A DNA stretch of 64,000 nt from Planctomycetota bacterium. Lineage in GTDB: Bacteria > Planctomycetota > MHYJ01 > JACPTZ01. The number at the start of each line of letters is the position of its first letter. Positions within the stretch are counted from its first letter, which is position 1. The notes under the pieces were generated by a model. It ran no database searches, was not told the DNA's origin, and saw only the letters and a list, made by a program, of their open reading frames with translations. Positions 16,929-28,068 of the stretch are shown here, one piece after another. The translations under genes and the position numbers were made by a program. The DNA lies in assembly GCA_016192525.1 (NCBI GenBank), contig JACPTZ010000154.1, positions 4,290-68,289 on the forward strand. The letters run 5' to 3'.

Positions 16929-18212
16929 CTACCCCACCCTCTCCCGCATGAACTTTCCCATCGCGTCGTAGGCGGTTTCGAGCTCCGCGGTCGGGAGCAG
17001 GAACACGATCCGGAAGTACGGGCCGTCGAGCGCCGAGGAGAAGCCGGCGCCGTGCACGGTGAGGATCCCGGTCGCCTCCAGCAGGTCCAACACGAACGCC
17101 TGATCGTCCTTCCACGCGCTCTTCTCGATCTTCGGAAACGCGTAGAAGGCGGCCTGCGGGGCCACGCACGACAGGCCCGGGATGGCGTTGAGCCGCTTCG
17201 TGGTGAGGGCGGCGCGTTCGCGCAACTTCGCGATCACGCCGGGGAGAAAGTCCATCGGTCCGGTGAGACCCGCCAGGAAGGCCTGCTGGATCGGGTGGTT
17301 CGAACAGAGGCGGGCCCGTCCGAGTCGCGCCGCCCCGTCGCGGACCCCCTCGAGCTCCTTCCCGTGGAAGGCGAGATAGCCGCAGCGGGCGCCGGGAAAG
17401 ATGAAGACTTTCGACATGCTGTACCCCACGATCACCGGCACGTCGCCCCGCAGCGCCATCAGGTCCGGACCTTGGTGGGGCAGGCGTCCCGCCTGCCCCG
17501 GCGCGGGCGGGACGCTCGCGCCACTTGCGGGGCGGGCGTCCCCGCCCGCCCCGGCGCAGGCAGGGAGGCCTGCGCCACGAGGGGCAAAGGTCAGCCGATC
17601 GTACGCCTGATCGAGAAAGATCGGGATCTTCGCCCACCGCGCGATCTCGACCAGCCCCTTCAGCGTCGTCTCCGAGTAGACCACGCCGGTCGGGTTGTTC
17701 GGGTCGATCACCACGAGACACCGCGTCCGCGGGGTGACCAGGCTCCGGACGTGATCGAGGTCCGGCTCCCATGTCCTCGGATCGCACCGGTAGAGGGCCG
17801 GGTGCGCCTCGAACAGGTTCGCCAGCGCCTGGTAGAGCGGGTAGCAGGGCGAGGGCAGAAGGACGTCATCGCCTGCATCGAGCATCGAGGCGAAACAGGC
17901 GAGAATCCCCTCGCTCATCGCGGCGGTGACGAGCACGTCGTCGACCTTCACCTTCTCGCGCGCCGCGATCGCCTCCCGCAGGGCCGGGATCCCCTCGCTC
18001 GGGGCATACGACGTGAACTTCGTGTCGCGCGCCGCCCTGGCGAAGGCCTCCATGACGTGCGGGGGCGGGGCGAAGTCGAACTTGTTCGGGTCGCCGATGT
18101 TCAGGTACGTCACCTGGCGACCGGTGGCCTCGAGCCGCTTCCCGGCGGCGACGATGTCGCGGATCGCATACTCGACCCCGGCGATGCGCCGGGCGACATG
18201 GACGGGGGGCAT
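16929..18212 (-). CDS. Class I/II pyridoxal-phosphate aminotransferase (AlaA/AspC-like) carrying an internal ~35-aa insertion
   Basis: YLNIGDPNKFDF, NPTGVVY, DQAYDRL and the PLP-lysine motif YSMSKVF. Start at ATG 18212 (MPPVHVARR...). The upstream R/P-rich extension of track ORF 16929..18458 is rejected. Confidence 0.85.
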   Translation of the reverse strand: MPPVHVARRIAGVEYAIRDIVAAGKRLEATGRQVTYLNIGDPNKFDFAPPPHVMEAFARAARDTKFTSYAPSEGIPALREAIAAREKVKVDDVLVTAAMSEGILACFASMLDAGDDVLLPSPCYPLYQALANLFEAHPALYRCDPRTWEPDLDHVRSLVTPRTRCLVVIDPNNPTGVVYSETTLKGLVEIARWAKIPIFLDQAYDRLTFAPRGAGLPACAGAGGDARPASGASVPPAPGQAGRLPHQGPDLMALRGDVPVIVGYSMSKVFIFPGARCGYLAFHGKELEGVRDGAARLGRARLCSNHPIQQAFLAGLTGPMDFLPGVIAKLRERAALTTKRLNAIPGLSCVAPQAAFYAFPKIEKSAWKDDQAFVLDLLEATGILTVHGAGFSSALDGPYFRIVFLLPTAELETAYDAMGKFMRERVG

Positions 18213-18273
18213 GGGGGACTCGCAGAGATCTGGGGGGAGGGGAGGCGCACGGCCTCCGGGGTGACTAACCCCC

Positions 18274-18480
18274 TCAGCAGGAGTCCTTCTTCTTTTCGGG
18301 CTCGGGCGCCGCCGCGGGCTTGGCGGGGGCCGCCGCCGGCTCCGGGGCGGAAGGCGCCCCGGGGGAAGCGGCGCCCGCGGGTTGAGGGGCGGGGACGGAA
18401 GGGGCCCGGGCCTCCTCGAATCCGCACGAGCAGGCGCAGGCGGCGAAGCTCGCCGCACAGAGCAGACGGATCAGGCGCAT
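18274..18480 (-). CDS. Small Pro/Ala-rich lipoprotein candidate
   Basis: MRLIRLLCAASFAACACSCG looks like a signal peptide with a lipobox-like Cys, followed by a PA-rich tail ending KKKDSC. Short and low complexity, so uncertain. Confidence 0.35.
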   Translation of the reverse strand: MRLIRLLCAASFAACACSCGFEEARAPSVPAPQPAGAASPGAPSAPEPAAAPAKPAAAPEPEKKKDSC

Positions 18481-18688
18481 GAGATCCTCCGAACGGGACA
18501 CGGAAGCGAACCGCCGCAATTATACATCGGCGACCGCCGGCCGAGGCGAGAGATTTTCGAGGTGAATCCACGTTGACGCGAAACAGGCGAGGATCGCTTC
18601 GCCGGGACCTGCGGCACGTTCTCTCGGCCCCGCGGCGGAGGATCCCCCCCCCGGGGACGGCGGAAGAGATCCGAAGGCGCCCTGTGCC

Positions 18689-18717
18689 TTGACATCCTAT
18701 GTACCTTGCGTTACAAT
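18689..18717 (+). promoter_or_regulatory. Near-consensus sigma70-type promoter upstream of padR
   Basis: TTGACA (18689-18694), a 17-nt spacer, then TACAAT (18712-18717), 31 nt upstream of the padR ATG. The atgta motif is repeated at 18699 and 18716. Confidence 0.6.
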
Positions 18718-18748
18718 GTAGTGGCGGGGGAACGAAGGGGCGCCGGAG

Positions 18749-19108
18749 ATGGACGACCTCGAGAACTGGACGGTCCAGGTCCGCAAGGGGATCCTCGAGC
18801 TCTGCATCCTCAACACGCTCGAGGAGGGGGAGCGGTACGGCTACGAACTCGTCAAGGCGCTGGTCGCGGTACCCGGACTCGGCGTCACCGAGGGGACCCT
18901 GTACCCGCTCCTCTCCCGCCTCCGCGTCCAGGGATGGGCGACCACCCGACTGGTGGAGTCGCCCGAGGGGCCCGCGCGCAAGTACTACGCCCTGACGCGG
19001 GACGGCCGGAGAACGGCCGCCGCCATGAACAGCTACCTCGACTCCCTCGTAAAGGGATGTCGGGTCCTGCGATCGTCGCCGGTCTCCACCAGAGGAGGGA
19101 AGCCATGA
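18749..19108 (+). CDS. PadR family transcriptional regulator
   Basis: GILELCILNTLEEGERYGYELVK...GTLYPLLSRLRVQGW...KYYALT is the canonical PadR wHTH pattern. The stop overlaps the next ATG (ATGA at 19105-19108). Confidence 0.9.
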   Translation: MDDLENWTVQVRKGILELCILNTLEEGERYGYELVKALVAVPGLGVTEGTLYPLLSRLRVQGWATTRLVESPEGPARKYYALTRDGRRTAAAMNSYLDSLVKGCRVLRSSPVSTRGGKP

Positions 19109-21783
19109 CCGAATGGACCGCCTCGGCCCGGGAAGAAGTGGATCGGTACCTGTCGAGGGCCGCCGATTCCGCGCGGGCGGACGGCGCCGATCCGAAGGAG
19201 GTCGTCGAGGATCTCCGCCGCCACATCGAAGCCGAGGTGGCCGCCGCCGGCATCGCCCTCCTCTCGCGCGAACGCCTGTGCGAAATCCTCGCCCGCCTGG
19301 GGCGTCCCGACCCCCTGCCGCCCGCACCCGCGCCGTCCGCACCTCCGGCGGCCGGCGCGCCGACTCCGGTCGCACCCGCCCGCCCGGTCCCGGGGTGGTG
19401 GAGAAGCCTCCTCGTCATCGTCTTCGGAGTCCTCCTCCCCGCCGGTACGCTCCTGTTCGAACTGGCGAACCACGAATGCGCGGGACTCTTCTTCGACCCC
19501 ATTCCGACCCTCTGGCATGCGGGTCTCATCGCGCTCGTCCCGCTCACCCAGGCCTTTCTCTGGGGGACCTTCCTCCGCGGGAAGCCGCTCCGAAGGCCGG
19601 CCCTGGGAGGCGCCCTGCTCGGCGTTGCCCTGGGGATCTCCGGGTTCTATGCCCTGCTCTTCATCCCGATCGTTCCCGTCGCCTTCGTCGGAATCCTCGC
19701 CATGGGACTGGGATTCCTGCCGCTCTCCCCGCTCCTGTCGTTCCTCGCCGGCCTGCTCGTTCGCGGCGAGCTGCGGCGTGCGGTCGGCTCGGGACGCCCG
19801 GACGCCGTCCGACCACCGGCCACATGGCACGGCATCGTGCTGGCCATGCTGGCGCTCGCCCTCATCGAGACGCCGAGGACCGTCACCCGAGTGGCCGTTC
19901 GCATGACCGCGTCGAGCGACCCGGCCGAGGTCCTCCGGGGAGTGCGCTGGCTTCGGTGGATGTACGACGAGGAGACACTCCTCGCGATGTGCTACGGCCT
20001 TCCTTCCTCACGCGACCTGATCGGCGCCGCCCTGAGCCTCAGTAAGCCCATTACCCCCCCCCAGGCCCAGAACGCCTACTTCCTGGCTACGGGAAGAGGG
20101 TTCTTCGAGGCCGCGCGGCCCTCGCACCCGCGTGTCGCCCGCGGTTGGGCGGACCGCCGGGAAGTCCTGGATTTCGATCAGGGAGGGGACGCCGTGGGGG
20201 GAAGAGTGACCCATCTGACGCTCGAGGAATCGCAGATCGACGGATCGGTGGACGCCGACGCGGCCCTGGCGTATCTCGAGTGGACCCTGACCTTCCGAAA
20301 CGAGTCGGCCTTTCAGCGCGAGGCCCGGGCACAGATCACCCTCCCTCCCGGCGGCCTCGTCTCCCGCCTGACACTCTGGCTCGACGGCGAGGAACGGGAG
20401 GCCGCCTATGCGGCCCGCGGAAAGGTGCGGGAGGCGTACCAGAACGTGGTGGTGAGGCAGAGACTCGACCCGGCCTTCGTGACGACCTGCGGAAAGGACC
20501 GCGTGCTCCTCCAGTGTTTTCCGGTCCCGCCCGGAGGGGGGGTGATGAAGGTGAAGATCGAAATCTCCGCCCCCCTCCAGGTCACGGCGGCGCCGGAGGC
20601 CTTCCTGCCGATGCCGATCCTCATCGAACGGAACTTCGACCTGAACCCGACAACGGGTCACGCCGTGTGGTTCGAGTCCAAAGAGCCCATCGAGACCGTT
20701 TCCGGCGCGCTCAAGTCGGAGCGTCCGAATGAACGCCTCCACGGGGTTCGGGGCCAGGTCAGCGATGCGGCCCTGTCCACGGGAGAGGCGACGCTTCGGG
20801 TCCGGCGCGCGACCGATCGCACGATGGCCTGGACCCTGGTGCCATTTGACGACGAAGGCCGGATCATCCTCCAGACCCTCGAGCCCTCGCCCGTCTCGAA
20901 GTTCCCCCGCCTGGTGGTTGTCGTGGACGGTTCCCGCTCGATGAAGGGGTACCTGCGGGAGATCGCCTTGGCCCTGAAGGCCCTTCCCCCGGAGGCCGAG
21001 TTGTCGATCCTGGTCGCCTCGGACACGGTCCTCGATCTGTCCGGCCCCCTCCGTCAACGCCCTCCCGCGGAGATTGCCGATCTCGCGCGCCAACTGGAGT
21101 CCCTCGACATGGAGGGCGGCTGCGACAACGCGCCCGCCCTCGCCCGGGCGTGGGACCTCGCGGCTGAACACGCCGACGGTGTGATTCTGTGGATTCACGG
21201 TCCGCAGCCCGCCTTGCTCAGCGTCGCGGGGTCGCTGAGGCAACGATGGGAACGGCGCCCGCAGGGACCGGTCACGCATGAGATCCGGGTCCAGGCGGGC
21301 CCCAGTCGGATGACGGAATCGATGAGGGCCGCCTCCTCCCGCCTTCAGACACTTCCGAGGCTCGGAACGCTGGAGCAGGACATCGCCCGCCGCATCGATC
21401 TCTGGAGCGGGAAGATGGCCGGGGTGACGACGATCCGGGAGCGGATTCCGAAACCCGCCGCCCTGGATGAGACCGCCCGGACCTCGATGCACCTGGCGAA
21501 ACTCTGGGCCGGCGAGGAGGTGGACCGGCTGCGCGCAACGCCGGAGGGGCGTGACACCGCCGTGGCCCTCGCTGCCGGCGCCCGCATCGTCACCGAGGTG
21601 AGCGGCGCCGTGGTACTGCAGAACAAGGAACAGTACGCACAGGCCGGGCTGACGCCGGTGGACCCGCAGAGCGTGCCCTCGATCCCGGAGCCTGGAACGA
21701 CCCTGCTGCTCGCGACGGGCGCGGCCGCGATTTGGGCCGGATGCAGGGGAAAGAGGAGGAGGGTCAGATGCCTCGCCGCGTGA
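19105..21783 (+). CDS. Polytopic membrane protein: HAAS/DUF1700-like N-terminus, multiple TM segments, VIT-like domain, vWA domain, C-terminal PEP-CTERM sorting signal
   Basis: SD agaggaggga precedes ATG 19105. N-terminus REEVDRYLSRA...EVVEDLRRHIEAEV...LGRP. Hydrophobic segments in residues ~100-300. FRNESAFQREARAQITLPPGGLVSRLTLWLDGEE (VIT-like). VVVVDGSRSMKG (MIDAS DxSxS). C-terminus VPSIPEPGTTLLLATGAAAIWAGCRGKRRR. Confidence 0.8.
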   Translation: MTEWTASAREEVDRYLSRAADSARADGADPKEVVEDLRRHIEAEVAAAGIALLSRERLCEILARLGRPDPLPPAPAPSAPPAAGAPTPVAPARPVPGWWRSLLVIVFGVLLPAGTLLFELANHECAGLFFDPIPTLWHAGLIALVPLTQAFLWGTFLRGKPLRRPALGGALLGVALGISGFYALLFIPIVPVAFVGILAMGLGFLPLSPLLSFLAGLLVRGELRRAVGSGRPDAVRPPATWHGIVLAMLALALIETPRTVTRVAVRMTASSDPAEVLRGVRWLRWMYDEETLLAMCYGLPSSRDLIGAALSLSKPITPPQAQNAYFLATGRGFFEAARPSHPRVARGWADRREVLDFDQGGDAVGGRVTHLTLEESQIDGSVDADAALAYLEWTLTFRNESAFQREARAQITLPPGGLVSRLTLWLDGEEREAAYAARGKVREAYQNVVVRQRLDPAFVTTCGKDRVLLQCFPVPPGGGVMKVKIEISAPLQVTAAPEAFLPMPILIERNFDLNPTTGHAVWFESKEPIETVSGALKSERPNERLHGVRGQVSDAALSTGEATLRVRRATDRTMAWTLVPFDDEGRIILQTLEPSPVSKFPRLVVVVDGSRSMKGYLREIALALKALPPEAELSILVASDTVLDLSGPLRQRPPAEIADLARQLESLDMEGGCDNAPALARAWDLAAEHADGVILWIHGPQPALLSVAGSLRQRWERRPQGPVTHEIRVQAGPSRMTESMRAASSRLQTLPRLGTLEQDIARRIDLWSGKMAGVTTIRERIPKPAALDETARTSMHLAKLWAGEEVDRLRATPEGRDTAVALAAGARIVTEVSGAVVLQNKEQYAQAGLTPVDPQSVPSIPEPGTTLLLATGAAAIWAGCRGKRRRVRCLAA

Positions 21784-22583
21784 GAGGGGACACCCTGGCG
21801 CTGATCCTGCAGATCGCGGCCTTCTGGCCCGTCTGGGCGAGGGGGGGCGAACGCCTCATGTCCTCGTCCGAGGAGACCGCGTGGGGGGTTCTGTCGTTGA
21901 TCACGGCGGTCGTCTTTCTGCGCCGGGTCGAGCCCGCGCCCGGAGCGAGGAGGCGGGCGCTCATCGTCGCCACGGCCGGAACACTGCTCTACGCCCTCGC
22001 CTGGCCCGTACTGCCTCCATTGCTGCGGGCGGCGGCGGCCCTCGCCGTCCTCGGCGGGACCCTCTTCTCGGGAGGATTGGGGTTCCGGTGGCCGGCCGGC
22101 GCAGGGGCGCTGCTCCTCCTCTCGCTTCCGGTCGTGCCCACGCTGCAGTTCTATCTGGGCTATCCGCTCCGGGTCGCGGCGGCCGCGCCGGCGGTGGCGA
22201 TGCTGCGACTCTCCGGCTTCGCCGGGTCGCGGACCGGGACCTGTTTTGACTGGGGAGGAAGGCTGATCGCCGTCGATGCGCCGTGCAGCGGCGTCCACAT
22301 GCTCTGGGTGGCGCTCTATCTGACGGCGACGCTGGCCTGCCTCTTCGACCTTCCGCTCCGAAGGCTGGCCGCGTCGGCGCTCCTCGCGCTGGGGACGGTC
22401 GTGGTCTGCAATGCATTTCGGGCCGCCGCCCTGTTCGTGCTGGAGTGCGGCGTGATGGCGCCCCCGGCCGGGGCTCACGACGGCATCGGCCTGGCGATCT
22501 TCGCGATGGCCGCGGTGATTCTCGGCGCGGGTCTCCGACGCCTGAGAGAAGGGAGCCCATGCGCCTCACCGCTCTCCATGTAG
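21768..22583 (+). CDS. Exosortase family protein
   Basis: SD aggaggaggg precedes ATG 21768. Multi-TM protein. Catalytic-type motifs DAPCSGVHML (Cys), VVVCNAFRAAALF (Arg) and a downstream His (GAHDGIG). It immediately follows a PEP-CTERM protein. Confidence 0.8.
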   Translation: MPRRVRGDTLALILQIAAFWPVWARGGERLMSSSEETAWGVLSLITAVVFLRRVEPAPGARRRALIVATAGTLLYALAWPVLPPLLRAAAALAVLGGTLFSGGLGFRWPAGAGALLLLSLPVVPTLQFYLGYPLRVAAAAPAVAMLRLSGFAGSRTGTCFDWGGRLIAVDAPCSGVHMLWVALYLTATLACLFDLPLRRLAASALLALGTVVVCNAFRAAALFVLECGVMAPPAGAHDGIGLAIFAMAAVILGAGLRRLREGSPCASPLSM

Positions 22584-22984
22584 CCGTCTGCGCCCTGGCG
22601 GCTCTGGCACCGGCGCTGACGCCGGAGCCGACCTCCCCCCGCTCCCGTCCGGGGCCGCCGTTCCCGGGATTTCCGTCGAGCCTCAAGGGGCGGGCGCTGG
22701 TGGAGCGCCCGCTGACCGCGCGGGAACGTGGGGTCTTTGCGGATTTCCCGGGACGAGCGGGACGGTTTTCGGACGGAGAACGCGAAGTCATCCTGCGTTG
22801 GGTATCGGAGAGAACCCGGCGGCTCCATCCCGCGTCGGAGTGCTTCGCGGCGATCGGCTACACGATTCGCCCCGCCCCGCTCCGCCGCGACGAGCAGGGT
22901 TGGCACTGGGCGGCGCTGTTCGGGGAGACACAGGGGCCCGGGTTGGCGTGGACCATCGCGGAGAGAGTCCCTTCGCCGGAGTAG
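22559..22984 (+). CDS. Small secreted protein, EpsI-like (exosortase accessory candidate)
   Basis: Signal-like MRLTALHVAVCALAALAPA. RRLHPASECFAAIGYTI resembles the EpsI HsPxxClxGxGW core. It overlaps the exosortase 3' end by 25 nt. Confidence 0.4.
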   Translation: MRLTALHVAVCALAALAPALTPEPTSPRSRPGPPFPGFPSSLKGRALVERPLTARERGVFADFPGRAGRFSDGEREVILRWVSERTRRLHPASECFAAIGYTIRPAPLRRDEQGWHWAALFGETQGPGLAWTIAERVPSPE

Positions 22985-22986
22985 CC

Positions 22987-23820
22987 ATGAACTCCATTCG
23001 CGGGTGGGCCCGATCGGTCGTTCCGTTCGCGGTTCGTCTTGAGTGCCGCCGGCTGGCCCGCGGGCCGGAGTGGGTGGTCGAGACACCCACGATCGCGAAG
23101 GTCAGGGCGAAACCCCGCGAGCGGGCGCGCTATCCGCACCTCCTCGCGCGGCATCGCTCCCCCCTGCTCCGCGATCCGGCCCTCGCCGGCACCGGGCTCC
23201 AGCGCGGGAAGGAGCACAACGTCGCGCTAGCCTCCGGTCTTCTGGACGGCCTGATCGTCCCGCCGAACCGGATATTCTCCTATCATCGAACGGTGGGACG
23301 TCCTTCGCGTTTCCGGGGGTTCCGGGACGGACTGGAACTGCACGCCGGGAAGCCGTCGCGCGGGGTCGGTGGGGGATGCTGTCAGGTCTCCAACATGCTC
23401 TTCCTCCTCGCCCTGCGGGGCGGAATGAAGGTGGTGGAGCGGCATCGACACGGCCTCGATCTCTTCCCGGACCATGAACGCACCATCCCCTTCGGGTGCG
23501 GGGCCACGGTGTACTACAACTTCGCGGACCTGCGATTCGAGAACCCGCTGCCCTTTCCGGTGATGCTCGCTCTCGGCATCAGGGACGGTTTCCTCGTCGG
23601 GGAGATCCGATCGGAGTCGGCCCCGGAGTGGACGGTCGAGGTCTACGAGATGGATCACCGCTTTTCTCGCGACGGCGACGCCTGGATTCGCGAGAACCGC
23701 ATTCGCCGCCGCTTCCGCGGCGCCGACGGGGAGATTCTGCTCGATCAGGAGGTCGCCTGCAATCGAGGCCGGGTCCTCTATGACCCCGGGGAGGATCAGA
23801 CATGTGGCGCGCCCTCATGA
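22987..23820 (+). CDS. VanW domain protein
   Basis: IFSYHRTVGRPSRFRGFRDG...GVGGGCCQVSNMLFLLALRGGMKVVERHRHG...GCGATVYYNFADLRFEN matches the VanW pattern (GGGiCQvSstLy...verh.H...DAtV...DlkF.N). Confidence 0.75.
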   Translation: MNSIRGWARSVVPFAVRLECRRLARGPEWVVETPTIAKVRAKPRERARYPHLLARHRSPLLRDPALAGTGLQRGKEHNVALASGLLDGLIVPPNRIFSYHRTVGRPSRFRGFRDGLELHAGKPSRGVGGGCCQVSNMLFLLALRGGMKVVERHRHGLDLFPDHERTIPFGCGATVYYNFADLRFENPLPFPVMLALGIRDGFLVGEIRSESAPEWTVEVYEMDHRFSRDGDAWIRENRIRRRFRGADGEILLDQEVACNRGRVLYDPGEDQTCGAPS

Positions 23821-24758
23821 AGGGGGCCATTCTCGCCGGGTTCGGACGGTTCCCGGGCGGGACACGCCTCTATCGCCATCTCACGCGCGAACGGATGGGC
23901 ACACAGGCCACTCACGTGGACAAGTTGCGACGCGTGTGGCCGGGCTACGTCGGGGTCTGGGAGGGACATGGAACCCTTCGCATGGAAGGGCTCCGGGTCT
24001 GGGTTCACGAGGCGGGATGGACCCCGTACGCGCCGCTGATCAACTACCTCCTCACCGGGAGCGGAGGCATCCTTACGAACGTGGAGGGACGCCTGCTGGA
24101 CAAGTACCTTTCGCGCGCCGTCAACGGGTCCCTCGGGACAGCCCTTCCGCCGGAGCGCTTTCCGCGGGGGCGGCGGCGACGCGTGGAGGGACTTCGCTGG
24201 TGCATGCGGGTCGAGGACGCGCTCCGGGAGATCGGCGCGGAGGTCCACCAGGACGTGAATCCCGCCTCGCTCCCGCTTCCCTCTTCGTCGGTGGATCTCT
24301 GTCACTCGGGTGGCACGCTGGAGCACTACCGCCCTGGCCGGCTCCGGGGGTTTCTGGCCGAGTGCTTCCGAATCCTGCGTCCCGGGGGTGTGGCCTCGCA
24401 TGTCTTCGACCACCGGGATCATCTCTTCCATGCGGACGCGCGGTGGCCTTTCCTCGCCCACTTCGCGCTGCCGGGACCCGTCTATGAGCTGCTGTGCGGC
24501 CACCCGCTCGGCTATCACAACCGGCTCCTGCCGACGGAAGTGGAGAGGCTCTTCGAGGAAGCGGGCTTCGAGAGAATCGTCGTTCGGAGGATGATCCTCC
24601 CGGGGCGCGAATACGTCGAGGAAAAGGCGGCCCTGCGGGGGAAGCAAGGCCTGTCCCGGATGCTGCTGGCGCCCCGTTTCCGCCCGGCCACCGATGAGGA
24701 TCTGCGCACGGCGGCGGCGCACTATCTGTACCGCAAGCCCGCCGCAGCGCAGGATTGA
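23802..24758 (+). CDS. Methyltransferase-fold protein (class I-like C-terminal half; SAM motif I not evident)
   Basis: VDLCHSGGTLEHYRPGRLRGFLAECFRILRPGGVASHVF resembles post-motif II/III of type 11/23 methyltransferases. No clear GxGxG. It overlaps VanW by 19 nt. Confidence 0.45.
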   Translation: MWRALMKGAILAGFGRFPGGTRLYRHLTRERMGTQATHVDKLRRVWPGYVGVWEGHGTLRMEGLRVWVHEAGWTPYAPLINYLLTGSGGILTNVEGRLLDKYLSRAVNGSLGTALPPERFPRGRRRRVEGLRWCMRVEDALREIGAEVHQDVNPASLPLPSSSVDLCHSGGTLEHYRPGRLRGFLAECFRILRPGGVASHVFDHRDHLFHADARWPFLAHFALPGPVYELLCGHPLGYHNRLLPTEVERLFEEAGFERIVVRRMILPGREYVEEKAALRGKQGLSRMLLAPRFRPATDEDLRTAAAHYLYRKPAAAQD

Positions 24759-24765
24759 CACTATC

Positions 24766-24924
24766 GTGGTGAACTTCGATCACCCGAGCCAGATTCCCGC
24801 CTTCGCCGAACCGTGGTTCCTGGCGTTCAAGGCGGACGTGCAGATCCACCCCGTCATGACGATGCAGGACCTTCAGAAGGCGGGTCCGGCCATCGAGAAG
24901 GCGGTGAAGGAGTACGCCTCCTGA
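24766..24924 (+). pseudogene. 5'-truncated remnant of a small conserved gene (retains ...DHPSQIPAFAEPWFLAFKADVQIHPVMTMQDLQKAG...)
   Basis: The frame is open only from inside the methyltransferase 3' end. The only starts in frame are GTG 24766/24769. From memory, the retained segment resembles the C-terminal half of ~100-aa proteins containing FAEPWFLxFNAxV. Confidence 0.35.
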
Positions 24925-25093
24925 GCTGAGCCGGGAAAGTACCCGGCCACCGGACGACGCCCTACCTCGAGAGGCCCTTCACCGGAATCTCCCGCGACCC
25001 CTCGGTCGGGAATGGACCCGTGTCGATGACAACCCGGGCCGTGGCCGGGGACGCCCCTTCCGGAACCTGCCAGGTCCCGGTCGCCTGACTCCC

Positions 25094-25672
25094 TCAGCCG
25101 TACGCCAGCGGGCCGGCGGCCACTCTGGCCCCGTCGCGGGAAATCAGTTCAAAGTCCGCCGGGACCCGGCGGTCGATCTCGCGTCGGCCGGTGTCCATCA
25201 GCGAGGCCTCCATCCCGCCGTGCCCGCCCACCGCGAGCGCGAGGGCGAGCGCGCCCTTCGCGCGCCGGACGCTCCAGCCGATTCTCACCGTCGGATCGAT
25301 CGCCATCTTCACCGTCTCGCCCGCCCTGACCACGATCGACGGACCGTCGCTCCCTGTGCAGGAGAGGATCCAGTCGCGACCGCCCTGCTCCCGCTCGATG
25401 ACGTAGTGACGCACGAGCCAGGTCCCGGGAGGGACCGGTCGCGTTCGGGCCCGATCCTCCTTCCCCCAGGCCAGCCTCAGTTCCACCCCCGGACGATCAC
25501 CGGACCCGGAGACGAGATCGACCAGTCCGCGATCGAACGGAGCTTCGACGAAGCCGCAGGAGTCCGCCTTCGAGGCTCCATCGCGGATCGGCGGGACGGG
25601 CCGCTGTTCGCGCAGCCACGCCGCCAGGCCGCCCCGGACTCCGCCCGACGAACCGTCGGGAGGGGCCTGCAC
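25094..25672 (-). CDS. Hypothetical protein (start uncertain)
   Basis: Long GC3-rich frame. It lies in the same frame as the upstream 70-aa ORF, separated only by TGA (25675-25673). No recognisable motifs. Confidence 0.45.
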   Translation of the reverse strand: MQAPPDGSSGGVRGGLAAWLREQRPVPPIRDGASKADSCGFVEAPFDRGLVDLVSGSGDRPGVELRLAWGKEDRARTRPVPPGTWLVRHYVIEREQGGRDWILSCTGSDGPSIVVRAGETVKMAIDPTVRIGWSVRRAKGALALALAVGGHGGMEASLMDTGRREIDRRVPADFELISRDGARVAAGPLAYG

Positions 25673-25885
25673 TCAGGAGGTGGTCTGGAGCATCTCCAGC
25701 CAGATCCGGTCGAAACGGATCGCCGGGTCGGGAACAAAGTGGCACGCGGCGCAGTTCGCCTCCCACAGCTTCGCGCCGGCCGCCCGATGTTCGGGGGAGG
25801 CCGGAGCAGTCGGGGGGGTCGATCGGCATCCGACAAGAACCGCGGCCAGAACGGCGGCCAGCAGGCACACTTCAGTACGGTTCAT
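25673..25885 (-). CDS. Small lipoprotein with CxxCH haem-c-type motif
   Basis: MNRTEVCLLAAVLAAVLVGC lipobox, and a CAACH motif. Confidence 0.45.
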   Translation of the reverse strand: MNRTEVCLLAAVLAAVLVGCRSTPPTAPASPEHRAAGAKLWEANCAACHFVPDPAIRFDRIWLEMLQTTS

Positions 25886-25901
25886 GGGAGTCTCCTGCGG
25901 A

Positions 25902-26035
25902 CTAGTGGGCCTTCAAGATTGAACTTGTGGGTGGCACGGGCGGCTTGTCCGCCCGTGCCTGCACGCTCCGAGCACGGGCAGCGAGCTGCCCGTGCCACCC
26001 GGCAACCCATAGATTCAATCTTGAAGGCCCCCTAG
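25902..26035. repeat. CTAG-bounded nested-palindrome element
   Basis: Terminal inverted repeats ctagtgggccttcaagattgaa (25902-25923) and ttcaatcttgaaggccccctag (26014-26035), 21/22 matching. Internal gggtggcacgggc...gcccgtgccaccc stem. Confidence 0.7.
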
Positions 26036-26223
26036 TGATCCGCCAACTCTAATCGTGCGGGTGGTTTGCCATCGTTGTTTCCCCCTCCCCGGGGGGAGGG
26101 GGTAGGGGGAGGGGTGCGGCCCTTCCCGGTGCCGGCGCGCGCCCACCCATCCCTGTCCTCCCCCCTTCCTCCTGCGCCCTTCGGGCTACGGAAGAAGTCC
26201 GTGAGAATCCCGGAGCAGGGCCG

Positions 26224-26625
26224 TCAGAAATTCCACTCCTCGTCCTCCACCCACCTCCTCACCCGTTCCTCGATCTCATCCCGGATCTCGCGGACCCGCT
26301 CGATCGGCTGCCCCTTCGGGTCGGACAGCGGCCAGTCCTCCCGGCGCAGACCGGGCACCGCCGGGCAGGACTCTCCGCACCCCATCGTGACGAGCACATT
26401 CATCTCCCGCGCCAGCTCCGGCGTCAGTTTCCTCGGAACCGCGCCGGAGAGATCGATCCCCCGTTCGCGCATGACTTCGACGACGACGGGATGCACCCGT
26501 TCCCCGGGTTCAGTCCCCGCCGAGACGGCCCTCGCCTTCCCGGGATCGGCCAGCGCCTTGAAGAAGGCCGCCGCCATCTGGGAGCGGCCGGCGTTGTGCA
26601 CACAGGCGAAGAGAACCGACATCAT
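26224..26625 (-). CDS. arsC: Arsenate reductase, LMW-PTPase (thioredoxin-coupled) type
   Basis: CVHNAGRSQMA (CX5R P-loop) and the downstream Cys pair in VTMGCGESCP. It overlaps the acr3 stop. Confidence 0.9.
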   Translation of the reverse strand: MMSVLFACVHNAGRSQMAAAFFKALADPGKARAVSAGTEPGERVHPVVVEVMRERGIDLSGAVPRKLTPELAREMNVLVTMGCGESCPAVPGLRREDWPLSDPKGQPIERVREIRDEIEERVRRWVEDEEWNF

Positions 26626-27704
26626 AACGTGACCCCCGGCGCCGGTTCGGGGGCGGGAAACCAGGATCGCGTCCGGTTGCAGACCGCGCAGACCGAGAGC
26701 ATGACGGGGACCTCCACCAGCACCCCCACGACGGTCGCCAGCGCGGCGCCGGAGCCCGGACCGTACAGGGCGATCGCCGTCGCGACCGCGAGTTCGAAAA
26801 AGTTGCTCGCCCCGATGAGCGCGCCGGGCGCCGCCACGGCGTACGGCACCCGCAGGACACGCATGAGTCCGTACGCGAGCGAGGAATTGAAGTAGACCTG
26901 GACGAGAATCGGGACGGCGATCAGCGCCACGTGCAGCGGCTTCCCGGTGATGTTCTCCGACTGGAAGGCGAAGATGAGGACGAGCGTGGCCAGAAGGGCC
27001 GTCAGGGTGACGGGCGCAAAGCGCGGCAGCAGGGTCTCATCAAACCAGACTCGACCCCGTCGCCGCACGAACCATGCCCGAAGGCCCGCGCCGACGGTGA
27101 GCGGGATCACAACAAACACGATCACCGAGTACAGCAGCACCTGAAAGGGAACTTCGAGCGAGGACGCCCCCTGCACGAGGAACCGGACGATCGGGGCGAA
27201 GAGGACGAGCATGATGAGGTCGTTCACGGAGACCTGCACGAGCGTGTAGGCGGGATCTCCGTCCGTGAGGTGGCTCCAGACGAAGACCATCGCCGTGCAG
27301 GGCGCGGCGGCGAGGATGATGGCCCCGGCGATGTACTGGCCGGCGTCTTCCGGGGCGATCCAGGCGGAGAAGAGGTGACGGAAGAAGAGCCAGGCGACGA
27401 AGGCCATCGAGAACGGTTTCACGAGCCAGTTCACGACGAGCGTCACCAGGAGGCCTCGGGGTCTCTTCCCCACGTCGCGGATCGAGGCGAAATCGACCTT
27501 CATCATCATCGGGACGATCATCAGCCAGATGAGGGCGGCGATGGGGAGGTTGATCTGACTCCCGGCGCCGAACTCGAGGTCCCGGAGAGCGGCCGTGACC
27601 CCCGGGACCCAGCGCCCGAGCGCCACCCCCGCGAGCATGCAGAGCGTCACCCAGAGCGTGAGGAATCGCTCGAAGAGACCGAGACGTTTGGCTGGACTAC
27701 TCAT
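26622..27704 (-). CDS. acr3: Arsenite efflux permease, ACR3 family
   Basis: MSSPAKRLGLFERFLTLWV... is a typical ACR3 N-terminus, with ~10 TM segments and an ars-operon context. I prefer the start at ATG 27704 over the track start at 27791. Confidence 0.88.
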   Translation of the reverse strand: MSSPAKRLGLFERFLTLWVTLCMLAGVALGRWVPGVTAALRDLEFGAGSQINLPIAALIWLMIVPMMMKVDFASIRDVGKRPRGLLVTLVVNWLVKPFSMAFVAWLFFRHLFSAWIAPEDAGQYIAGAIILAAAPCTAMVFVWSHLTDGDPAYTLVQVSVNDLIMLVLFAPIVRFLVQGASSLEVPFQVLLYSVIVFVVIPLTVGAGLRAWFVRRRGRVWFDETLLPRFAPVTLTALLATLVLIFAFQSENITGKPLHVALIAVPILVQVYFNSSLAYGLMRVLRVPYAVAAPGALIGASNFFELAVATAIALYGPGSGAALATVVGVLVEVPVMLSVCAVCNRTRSWFPAPEPAPGVTL

Positions 27705-28068
27705 GACCCCCCTTCCCCGGCGGACAGCATCCGCCTCCGGCGATCCGGCGGGCGCGCGCCGCATCCCGGACCAGTTCGGGCACGTCGGCAAAGCAGTCCC
27801 GCAGACAACCCAGGAGCCGGCGATGAAAGGGGCCCGCCGGCCGGGAGAGCCTGTAGTGCACCCAGAGCCCCTCCTTGCGGGCCGTCACGAGGCGCGCCCG
27901 GCGGAGGTAGGCCAGATGACGCGACACCCGCGCCTGGGGAACGGCGAGAATATCGACGAGGTCGCCCACGCAGAGTTCTCCCCGACGCAGCAGCGACAGA
28001 ATCCTCAGGCGGGTGAGATCGGCGAAGGCGCGGAAGAGACGATCGACCGGGGAGCGGGGAGTCTTCAT
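27697..28068 (-). CDS. arsR: ArsR/SmtB family metalloregulator with Cys-rich C-terminal tail
   Basis: FADLTRLRILSLL...ELCVGDLVDIL...VSRHLAYLRRARLV is an ArsR wHTH. C-terminal GGGCCPPGKGG. Confidence 0.9.
   Translation of the reverse strand: MKTPRSPVDRLFRAFADLTRLRILSLLRRGELCVGDLVDILAVPQARVSRHLAYLRRARLVTARKEGLWVHYRLSRPAGPFHRRLLGCLRDCFADVPELVRDAARARRIAGGGCCPPGKGGHE

Follow-up and report, generated by a model that had tools for sequence, protein, structure and literature searches.

A Planctomycetota operon pairing a PadR regulator with a membrane-embedded VIT-vWA PEP-CTERM protein and an XrtQ-like exosortase, followed by a probable passenger gene pair

Six genes packed behind one promoter in a Planctomycetota bacterium, encoding a PadR regulator, an 892-aa VIT-vWA protein with a PEP-CTERM tail, an exosortase, a small accessory protein, a VanW-domain protein and a methyltransferase, raise the question of whether such tight packing reflects a single sorting or anchoring module. 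The initial annotation of the window (the whole 64,000-nucleotide stretch of DNA analysed here) had proposed that all six are hard-wired together. To our knowledge, exosortases are widespread, but experiments have hardly begun to address their chemistry, their acceptors or what they do biologically. The concept of dedicated sorting systems, in which one enzyme serves one target, has been described (10.1101/2023.06.07.544157). We find that relatives do not conserve the six genes together. Comparison with related loci instead indicates that the locus is made of three independently conserved gene pairs, the third of which is linked to the others only in this organism.

Results

All six genes lie on the + strand between 18749 and 24758, and the coordinates and junctions described earlier were reproduced in full. 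The PadR gene (18749-19108, 119 aa) shares an ATGA overlap with the gene for the VIT protein (19105-21783, 892 aa), which in turn overlaps the exosortase gene (21768-22583, 271 aa) by 16 nt. The accessory gene (22559-22984, 141 aa) overlaps the exosortase gene by 25 nt and is separated by a 2-nt gap from the VanW gene (22987-23820, 277 aa), and the methyltransferase gene (23802-24758, 318 aa) overlaps the latter by 19 nt. Each gene has an ATG start preceded by a GGAG-type ribosome-binding site, and NCBI gene calls match the lengths of 119, 141 and 277 aa. All genes other than that of the accessory protein are intact, with the high GC3 typical of coding sequence. No paralogs of any of the six were found elsewhere in the 64-kb window and, as had been noted before, no glycosyltransferases lie near the operon. 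A truncated DUF3303 fragment comes after it.

The near-consensus promoter reported upstream was confirmed as a sigma-70-type TTGACA-17-TACAAT element (18689-18717, + strand) that matches 11/12 consensus positions. It is the sole promoter-like site in the 9 kb scanned (17500-26500; mean of 0.3 in shuffled sequence), and the scan found none inside the operon. A Planctomycetota relative, L171, has the same layout (TTGACA-17-TAnnAT). The whole arrangement, including the junction between the accessory and VanW genes, was found again in five independent assemblies from different sequencing runs, and therefore an assembly chimera at this junction was ruled out.

The 892-aa protein is polytopic and joins a HAAS-like domain, a transmembrane (TM) bundle, VIT and vWA domains and a PEP-CTERM tail; we predict that it is both a sensor and the target of the exosortase. 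Its AF2 model has a mean pLDDT of 87.6 and a pTM of 0.78, and its best fold match in Foldseek is the ITIH1 heavy chain (6FPY; E 1.6e-19, ~590 columns). A representative library searched with the protein returned 1185 proteins at E<1e-30. The HAAS-like domain (residues 1-68; 19105-19308, + strand) is modelled as three helices (6-25, 30-47 and 55-65; block pLDDT 87-96) followed by G66-R-P68, of which G66 is nearly invariant among relatives. The Pfam HAAS model PF22564 matches it weakly (16.9 bits against a cutoff of 27, E 0.008). The same model reaches E<=0.01 in 3/26 relatives (best 3.9e-5) and is precomputed on P0402 and P0484, and 69 of the top 150 representatives have a HAAS-like domain. The HAAS label given in the initial annotation is therefore one of the weaker ones: the model has the three helices and the GxP motif, and the Pfam score is sub-threshold.

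The TM bundle (residues 98-268; 19396-19908, + strand) comprises helices at 98-122, 136-157, 165-200, 204-228 and 240-268 in the AF2 model and shares homology with the TM region of MSEP-CTERM proteins, as seen in relatives. By the positive-inside rule, the five helices would span the membrane so that the N-terminus is cytoplasmic and the C-terminal part lies outside. Beyond the bundle, a tandem VIT-vWA architecture is indicated by marginal Pfam scores, by VIT matches among relatives and by the fit to ITIH1. The VIT region (residues about 371-560; 20215-20784, + strand) is all-beta in the model and fits the ITIH1 fold; PF08487 matches it with E 2e-5 (25.1 against a cutoff of 26.5) and matches 26/26 relatives. 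The vWA domain (residues about 602-781; 20908-21447, + strand) carries a DGSRS MIDAS-type motif at 608-612, scores 22.9 against a cutoff of 26.4 with VWA_CoxE (E 6e-5) and has the vWA domains of ANTXR2 and CMG2 among its fold matches. D608 is invariant, yet the full DxSxS is intact in just 42/150 representatives, and we rejected the MIDAS motif as a family-wide feature.

The protein ends in the tail VPSIPEPGTTLLLATGAAAIWAGCRGKRRR, where the PEP-CTERM signature recognised previously (21679-21780, + strand) consists of P861-E862-P863, a hydrophobic helix and RGKRRR. The tail passes the NCBIfam PEP_CTERM model TIGR02595 (17.0 bits, cutoff 16) and falls just under the threshold of PF07589 (18.5 versus 20.7). 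P858, P861, E862 and P863 are invariant in 50 homologs, the PEP motif lies within the last 45 aa in 146/150 representatives, and NCBI names the product a PEP-CTERM protein. It is the single PEP-CTERM-like ORF in the 64-kb window.

The adjoining enzyme, in which a hydropathy scan finds several hydrophobic segments, matches the exosortase superfamily (TIGR04178, 41.8 against a cutoff of 23; PF09721, 82.9 against 25.7). The Cys and Arg motifs pointed out before hold: Cys173 of DAPCSG (22284-22286) and N215xxR218 (Arg218 at 22419-22421), together with His237 (22476-22478), all on the + strand, are invariant in 29 homologs. The enzyme reaches the cutoff of no named subfamily in NCBIfam release 20, the nearest being XrtQ (NF012182, 127.8 versus 270); the initial annotation had likewise known of no described subtype with this partner set. 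Relatives in its clade score 145-190 bits against the XrtQ model, and in a neighbour-joining tree it groups among exosortases that adjoin a multi-TM VIT protein. These scores place it in an unnamed sister clade of XrtQ. Literature searches on XrtQ/XrtN, on exosortase with VanW and on exosortase/PEP-CTERM with VIT found nothing relevant.

The accessory gene follows the exosortase gene in nearly all of 172 loci. Its product is anchored in the membrane by its N-terminus, and its extracytoplasmic domain contains an invariant His90 and an invariant Cys95. This domain is fused to the exosortase in the true XrtQ of Pseudomonas and shares homology with the C-terminal parts of the XrtT, XrtO and XrtN models, and the sole family match of the window protein is to the C-terminal part of the XrtT model. 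The protein had been called EpsI-like, an assignment we reject: the EpsI models PF11984 and TIGR02914 gave no match to it (Pfam at E<=10, NCBIfam at E<=0.01), and PF11984 matched 1/40 members of its family, with E 0.012. A profile search of PDB sequences with the accessory family found nothing. The window copy has lost, in frame, about 33-41 residues that are present in 39 homologs, so the sorting half of the locus could be impaired here; the deletion leaves His90, Cys95 and the region of the C-terminal W-x-W-A-A...GP...W motif in place.

Neighbourhoods were compared across 165 loci fetched around exosortase or VIT homologs, in which we distinguish a long form of the VIT protein, with the N-terminal HAAS-like domain, from a short form without it. 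A PadR gene lies directly upstream in 48/51 long-form loci versus 0/46 short-form loci, which substantiates the proposal that PadR is wired to the target and ties it to the HAAS-bearing form. The exosortase and accessory genes are adjacent in 44/45 short-form loci versus 8/40 long-form loci; the short-form count, along with the absence of a second PEP-CTERM-like ORF from the window, supports the reading of exosortase and PEP-CTERM VIT-vWA protein as a dedicated pair. The remaining 32/40 long-form loci have no adjacent exosortase, and no gene cluster common to more than 4 of the loci clustered was found as a third partner downstream of these exosortase-less targets. An exosortase gene next door is thus missing from most PadR and long-form pairs, and signalling may therefore work without a dedicated enzyme. 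Long forms nevertheless keep the PEP motif (67/69), and therefore an exosortase is still needed somewhere. A small multi-TM ORF was seen after the target in 5 loci.

A four-gene version, with PadR, VIT protein, exosortase and accessory protein, recurs in L097, L099, L132, L133, L155 and the Planctomycetota metagenome-assembled genome L171. The last has the same 16-nt overlap of target and exosortase genes and continues with URO-D and folate genes instead of VanW. The window carries this minority four-gene combination plus the VanW/methyltransferase pair.

The regulator belongs to the winged-helix PadR family (PF03551, 72.2 bits against a cutoff of 27), and its orthologs (59-74% identity) are encoded directly upstream of long-form VIT genes. 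Its predicted operator, GTACCTTGCGTTACAATGTAG (18701-18721), is a 21-bp quasi-palindrome lying partly over the -10 box; with <=4 mismatches allowed, the 64-kb window contains no other such site. The consensus CTACYWTGTAWTACAWRGTAG occurs with <=5 mismatches upstream of PadR in 24/45 distinct loci versus 0.2% of shuffles, and the window 21-mer, used as the query with <=6 mismatches, is matched in 14/44 other loci versus 0.45% of shuffles. Among short-form loci, which lack PadR, 1/50 upstream regions match the operator site of L139. A strict search for the canonical PadR operator ATGT-N8-ACAT found none, and the conserved motif is a different 21-bp palindrome. We infer that PadR binds this palindrome over the -10 box and, in doing so, probably acts as a repressor of the operon.

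The fifth protein matches the VanW domain (PF04294, 113 bits) and keeps the conserved Cys (GGGCCQ) and the RHRHG motif; against the VanW resistance-protein models it scores 106 versus a cutoff of 365. The sixth has a class I SAM methyltransferase fold (Methyltransf_11, 31.4 against a cutoff of 21.2), with homologs of 55-71% identity in several phyla. Among homologs of the pair, GGGCCQVSN is invariant. No hydrophobic segment, signal peptide or TM helix was found in the VanW protein by hydropathy scan, and the methyltransferase likewise has neither a signal peptide nor a TM segment. The two genes are adjacent and overlapping in 5/6 of the methyltransferase contexts examined, in unrelated surroundings with no exosortase, and near exosortase or VIT homologs VanW, methyltransferase and DUF3303 gave 0 matches in 165 loci. 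The six-gene hard-wired module of the initial annotation is contradicted by this comparison. The gene distribution suggests that the pair is most likely a passenger cassette, apparently cytoplasmic and outside the sorting system. It is probably co-expressed with the rest of the operon because of the 2-nt gap, the 19-nt overlap and the lack of an internal promoter-like site, and it may have a lineage-specific functional link with the sorting genes. VanW domains are Cys/His/Asp transpeptidases, as in Ldt4 and Ldt5 of C. difficile (PMC11348318). The window protein resembles these in its strong VanW domain, conserved Cys and RHRHG motif, but it differs from them in having no signal peptide, TM helix or peptidoglycan-binding domain and in its pairing with a SAM methyltransferase, and a role in peptidoglycan cross-linking is doubtful.

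Discussion

The sorting half of this operon resembles XrtQ systems in arrangement. True XrtQ enzymes of Pseudomonas and Variovorax (352 and 381 bits; L051, L083) also directly follow a single VIT-vWA PEP-CTERM protein, with the same accessory domain either downstream of them or fused to them. However, the window enzyme remains well below the XrtQ cutoff, and PadR was present in none of the XrtQ-type loci fetched. The targets also differ: those of L051, L026 and L083 are soluble, with a signal peptide, and TIGR03788-like (412-421 bits), whereas the window target is multi-TM and has no TIGR03788 match at E<=0.01.

The target follows the overall plan of the proteins of the XrtN (TIGR04477) and MSEP-CTERM (TIGR04286) systems, in which a large integral-membrane VIT protein carries a sorting signal at its C-terminus; it shares the VIT region with both models, and its relatives share the TM region as well. 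The VIT proteins of both systems pair with a dedicated exosortase (XrtN and exosortase K, respectively). The window proteins nonetheless fall far short of these models, the target scoring 85.9 against the TIGR04477 cutoff of 250 and 34.1 against the TIGR04286 cutoff of 150, and the enzyme 41.6 against the XrtN (TIGR04476) cutoff of 200; the motif is IPEP, not MSEP. We know of no N-terminal HAAS domain or PadR partner in either system.

The N-terminal half resembles HAAS-PadR pairs, which have been presented as an alternative to two-component systems, in which helix 3 is followed by a GxP motif, and which occur fused to many unrelated sensor domains (PMC11237479). As in those pairs, PadR is encoded immediately upstream, and a three-helix domain ending in GxP is joined to a multi-TM sensor; PadR and this protein are coupled almost without exception in the family (48/51 loci). 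What differs is the sub-threshold Pfam HAAS score and the sensor itself, a VIT-vWA ectodomain with a PEP-CTERM tail; VIT, vWA, PEP-CTERM and exosortase are all unmentioned in the account of these pairs (PMC11237479). Across the VIT, vWA and C-terminal regions of this ectodomain, ITIH1 (6FPY) is the best structural match, but with ~10% sequence identity, and both ends of the bacterial protein are embedded in the membrane. ITIH heavy chains undergo cleavage close to their C-terminus and covalent transfer onto a glycan. This processing parallels, by analogy, what a transpeptidase-type enzyme might do to the window target.

Our data make it probable that the operon is an autoregulated, dedicated sorting and sensing system, with three gene pairs behind one promoter of which the third is a passenger. 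PadR and the 892-aa protein would form a HAAS-PadR signalling pair, in which PadR would repress the operon at the -10 palindrome and the cytoplasmic HAAS-like domain would bind or release PadR. The trigger would be the state of the extracytoplasmic ITIH-like VIT-vWA module, relayed through the TM bundle. The XrtQ-like exosortase would recognise the PEP-CTERM helix of the same protein and cleave at PEP through Cys173, after which the C-terminus may be released or transferred to an acceptor. Having both a regulatory pair and a dedicated sorting pair, the operon would therefore encode its own regulator, its target and sensor, and its processing enzyme, and the VanW/methyltransferase cassette would be co-transcribed downstream, apart from sorting.

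Within this system, the sorting reaction itself could be the signal, if cleavage or transfer of the C-terminal helix, or ligand capture by the ITIH-like VIT-vWA ectodomain after its covalent attachment to an envelope polymer, were to shift the TM bundle and HAAS-like domain and so free PadR. We know of no description, for any sortase-like system, of a transcriptional readout of C-terminal sorting state, and we regard this version as decidedly unlikely. Somewhat less unlikely is a reading in which the PadR/HAAS-VIT pair senses the envelope or a ligand and gives an output that does not depend on the exosortase, with the enzyme only maturing or anchoring the protein and regulation not responding to the sorting state. 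The exosortase-less long-form loci, which share no common downstream gene, would fit such independence, as would the range of sensor domains to which HAAS-PadR pairs are fused (PMC11237479), and in the exosortase tree loci with PadR are interspersed with short-form loci, suggesting repeated recombination of modules. The near-universal PEP motif of long forms speaks against it, however, and the promoter under operator control in the window also drives the exosortase.

The extent of the functional unit can also be questioned in both directions. If the sorting half were decaying, with the truncated accessory protein rendering the exosortase pair non-functional, the locus would be a remnant, and both the residues missing relative to 39 homologs and the truncated DUF3303 fragment after the operon could be taken that way. 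We judge this very improbable: the deletion is in frame and spares His90, Cys95 and the C-terminal motif region, the other genes are intact with high GC3, and the sequence is identical in five assemblies. Conversely, all six genes could constitute one sorting or anchoring module, in which the VanW protein and the methyltransferase act on the substrate or the acceptor. Tight packing behind one promoter and the reproduction of the arrangement in five independent assemblies would suit this reading, and a second transpeptidation step is conceivable, given that VanW is a transpeptidase domain (PMC11348318) and that its Cys and His motifs are kept here. Yet both genes are missing from all 165 related loci, the nearest relative with the four-gene version (L171) has other genes downstream, and the pair is conserved alone, at 55-71% identity, in other phyla and among unrelated neighbours. 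Moreover, sorting chemistry is extracytoplasmic, whereas both proteins lack a signal peptide or TM segment. The co-occurrence data largely refute an integrated six-gene module, which we consider barely plausible.

The preferred reading, a self-regulated sorting and sensing system with a passenger, has several consequences. The VanW/methyltransferase pair illustrates that tight operon packing can mislead, and it represents a separate, widely conserved cassette that is worth its own study. Dedicated systems with a single VIT target are the simplest place to study exosortases, and the one described here has a built-in transcriptional handle, consisting of PadR, a conserved predicted operator over the -10 box and a HAAS-like domain on the target. 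Therefore, a simple reporter could serve to follow target processing or ligand binding. The operon is most likely a variant of known exosortase and HAAS-PadR systems that carries a passenger gene pair. As such, it draws attention to a large, as yet unnamed clade that is sister to XrtQ and whose targets form hundreds of 50%-identity clusters across many phyla, and would extend HAAS-PadR signalling to VIT-vWA ectodomains.

Results

The six plus-strand genes encode a PadR regulator (18749-19108), an 892-aa VIT/vWA membrane protein with a PEP-CTERM tail (the target, 19105-21783), an exosortase (21768-22583), a small accessory protein (gene 4, 22559-22984), a VanW protein (22987-23820) and a methyltransferase (23802-24758). 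The initial annotation proposed that all six form one hard-wired sorting module; this was not supported. Neither the VanW protein, the methyltransferase nor a DUF3303 fragment had a match in any of 165 related loci, and the first two form a cassette of their own. We conclude that the six genes split into three pairs, a modular decomposition that is well supported.

The 165 loci comprise an exosortase-centred set of 85 (80 species-representative genomes and 5 look-ups) and a target-centred set of 80 loci collected from metagenomes around 892-aa protein homologs; both were searched with the window proteins, and duplicates were removed before counting. Among the loci fetched for comparison (L001-L172), 113 distinct ones carried a VIT homolog. 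Short-form targets, whose start corresponds to about residue 100 in the window protein, had PadR directly upstream in 0 of 46 cases and the exosortase plus accessory gene directly downstream in 44 of 45. For long forms, which have the N-terminal domain of ~70 residues, PadR lay directly upstream in 48 of 51 (59-74% identity) and the exosortase plus accessory gene directly downstream in 8 of 40. The pattern is inverse: short forms almost always adjoin an exosortase and never have PadR, and long forms almost always have PadR but seldom an adjacent exosortase. The window's four-gene combination recurs in L097, L099, L132, L133 and L155. It is also present in L171, another Planctomycetota MAG, where the 16-nt overlap is retained and URO-D and folate genes come next.

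No conserved downstream gene was found among 28 exosortase-less long-form loci with at least 2 kb downstream. Five PadR-target loci lacking an exosortase have a small multi-TM ORF (~120-150 aa) directly 3' of the long-form target (L086 4184-4621; L140 2987-3430, ending ...GGFLNWFFD; L148 7521-7880; L151 7807-8166; L172 6021-6428), which may be a third component of this variant. Long-form, HAAS-bearing targets also occur without an upstream PadR, in L003 (3948-7888), L125 (8001-10634) and L129. L003 has, in place of PadR, a divergently transcribed regulator of HTH_34/ArsR type together with a membrane protein whose SdpI-like match is weak, and the L125 target lies 3' of an unrelated 629-aa ORF.

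The ORF ends and junctions first described were confirmed for all six genes: an ATGA overlap (19105-19108), overlaps of 16 nt (21768-21783) and 25 nt (22559-22583), a 2-nt gap (22985-22986) and a 19-nt overlap (23802-23820). Each gene has an ATG start preceded by a GGAG-like ribosome-binding site, and NCBI calls for the MAG ("Planctomycetes bacterium"; MBI3098969, MBI3098972, MBI3098973) give the same lengths. Gene order, including the accessory/VanW junction, is identical in five independent Logan assemblies from different sequencing runs. The reported promoter (TTGACA-17-TACAAT, 18689-18717) is the sole promoter-like site in 9 kb, where 0.3 would be expected, and no internal promoter-like site was found in the six-gene run. 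An aminotransferase gene lies upstream and an ars cluster downstream; as originally noted, no glycosyltransferases are adjacent, and polysaccharide genes are absent from the surroundings. The arsenic-resistance-type cluster (26224-28068, minus strand), which has no relation to the finding, encodes a low-molecular-weight phosphatase/ArsC-like protein (26224-26625), an ACR3/SBF-family transporter (26622-27791) and an ArsR-family regulator (27697-28068). Just past the methyltransferase gene, a short ORF (24694-24924; called as a 52-aa gene, ~24766-24924) matches DUF3303 in its C-terminal half only (profile positions 50-88 of 92) and is probably a truncated remnant.

Many loci carry a 21-bp quasi-palindrome with consensus CTACYWTGTAWTACAWRGTAG in front of PadR. 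Of 45 distinct upstream regions, 24 contain it at five or fewer mismatches, versus 0.2% of shuffles. Natural sites served as second queries to avoid circularity of the consensus: the window 21-mer matched 14 of 44 other loci at six or fewer mismatches (0.45% of shuffles), and the site from comparison locus L139 matched 21 of 44 loci and 1 of 50 upstream regions of PadR-less short-form targets. The window palindrome (18701-18721) covers the -10 hexamer (18712-18717) and is the only match at four or fewer mismatches in 64 kb, which argues for PadR autorepression via this putative operator. PadR itself scores 72 bits against PF03551 (cutoff 27).

By unbiased HMMER search, the target has 2939 relatives among 1.84 billion cluster representatives, 1185 at E<1e-30. 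The top 150 carry the N-terminal domain in 69 cases, the TM domain in 148 and a PEP motif within the last 45 residues in 146. The window protein scores 25.1 bits for VIT (PF08487, cutoff 26.5) and 22.9 for VWA_CoxE (PF05762, cutoff 26.4), and the PEP-CTERM tail first described for it passes TIGR02595 (NCBIfam; 17.0 bits, cutoff 16); it is the single PEP-CTERM-like ORF within the window. A confident AlphaFold2 model built with 50 homologs (mean pLDDT 87.6, pTM 0.78) starts with three helices (6-25, 30-47, 55-65) that end at G66-R-P68. After a disordered linker come a helical bundle in the membrane (98-268), a VIT region rich in beta structure (~371-560), a vWA domain of alpha/beta type (~602-781, DGSRS at 608-612) and, last, a terminal helix (865-891). 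Its top Foldseek match was inter-alpha-inhibitor heavy chain 1 (6FPY; E 1.6e-19, ~590 columns), followed by isolated vWA domains. Judged by the positive-inside rule and the basic cluster at the C-terminus, the HAAS domain would be cytoplasmic, the TM helices that follow would be odd in number (probably five), the VIT-vWA part would be external and the PEP-CTERM helix would return into the membrane.

The HAAS label is among the weaker ones, as its profile stays sub-threshold (16.9 bits, cutoff 27). The domain agrees with the published definition, in which a three-helix domain with a GxP kink is obligately paired with a PadR-like wHTH protein (PMC11237479). That work proposes HAAS-PadR as an alternative to two-component signalling and makes no mention of vWA, PEP-CTERM or exosortases; the sole "vit" in its text belongs to the words "in vitro" of a cited title.

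The exosortase passes PF09721 (83 bits, cutoff 25.7) and the TIGR04178 signature (41.8, cutoff 23). Its top NCBIfam model is exosortase Q (XrtQ; 127.8 bits, cutoff 270), with the remaining named models far below. A database search returned 440 homologs (~40-48% identity) from Acidobacteriota, Chloroflexota, Nitrospira, Gammaproteobacteria and others, all annotated merely as "exosortase/archaeosortase family"; ten of them score 145-190 bits with the XrtQ model, all below cutoff. A rough neighbour-joining tree places the window enzyme in a sister group to XrtQ, in which the neighbouring gene encodes a multi-TM VIT protein. The window exosortase is a member of an unnamed sister clade of XrtQ. True XrtQ occurred among more distant loci (Pseudomonas L051, 352 bits; Variovorax L083, 381 bits), directly 3' of one soluble VIT-vWA PEP-CTERM protein, whereas the window neighbour is multi-TM. 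The target proteins beside these XrtQ score 412-421 bits with the "marine proteobacterial sortase target" model (cutoff 552).

The accessory protein has an N-terminal hydrophobic anchor, invariant His90, Cys95 and FPG motifs, and homology to the C-terminal region of the XrtT model. True XrtQ enzymes have the same domain either fused to them or encoded directly behind them; Variovorax and the window exosortase clade have it as a separate gene. Fusions to the exosortase C-terminus (452-471 aa; L051 9938-11317, L053 9884-11296, L057 9926-11341, L077 9962-11320) occur in Pseudomonas/Ectopseudomonas, as true XrtQ, and in related Parachitinimonas and Pelagicoccus enzymes, of which L053 scores 175 bits with XrtQ, below cutoff. 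The accessory domain of the fused L051 enzyme aligns with the XrtT, XrtO and XrtN models in their C-terminal parts. Gene 4 had been called EpsI-like; because it is matched by no EpsI model, and PF11984 (EpsI) weakly matches just 1 of 40 family members, EpsI is a remote analogy at best. Compared with all 39 aligned homologs, the window protein lacks ~33-41 residues in frame, between the conserved 'CFxGxGY...' and 'WYWAA' motifs. The 141-aa sequence is identical in the NCBI record and five Logan assemblies, so the deletion is real, and it may impair function.

The VanW and methyltransferase-fold labels hold, both above Pfam cutoffs (PF04294, 113 bits versus 27; Methyltransf_11, 31 versus 21.2). 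Methyltransferase homologs share 55-71% identity across several phyla and are conserved much more than the exosortase. A VanW protein (~271-327 aa) lies directly upstream with a 19- or 4-nt overlap in 5 of 6 contexts examined, and no exosortase, VIT or PadR gene was found beside the pair in these contexts, where flanks are unrelated. The overlapping two-gene cassette lies at 22987-24758 in the window, and elsewhere at L167 6189-7957, L168 6168-7945, L169 4770-6532 and L170 6036-7948. Conserved Cys and RHRHG motifs are kept in the proteins of the pair.

Discussion

Because the VanW and methyltransferase genes form their own conserved cassette in unrelated contexts, we treat them as a passenger pair, co-transcribed here. 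Recent work showed VanW domains to be catalytic domains of L,D-transpeptidases (PMC11348318). However, the characterised enzymes are extracytoplasmic, whereas no hydrophobic segment was found in the window VanW protein, which is paired with a methyltransferase; a cytoplasmic VanW in such a pair probably has another role.

From family knowledge, we infer the following signalling and cleavage steps. PadR would repress the promoter via the palindrome, and the polytopic VIT-vWA protein would hold or release PadR with its cytoplasmic HAAS domain, according to the state of the outer ITIH-like module. The XrtQ-like exosortase and its accessory subunit would cleave the PEP-CTERM signal of the target via Cys173, and the exosortase would then release or transfer the target C-terminus. 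The same transcript would carry VanW and the methyltransferase along.

The sorting state itself may feed back on PadR, but most PadR-target pairs have no exosortase next to them, which speaks for a looser link. PadR-bearing targets still need an exosortase, as shown by the invariance of their PEP motif. Of the proposed regulated sorting module there remains a dedicated exosortase system under probable PadR/HAAS regulation. It belongs to the unnamed XrtQ sister clade, and in the window it is joined to an unrelated conserved pair.
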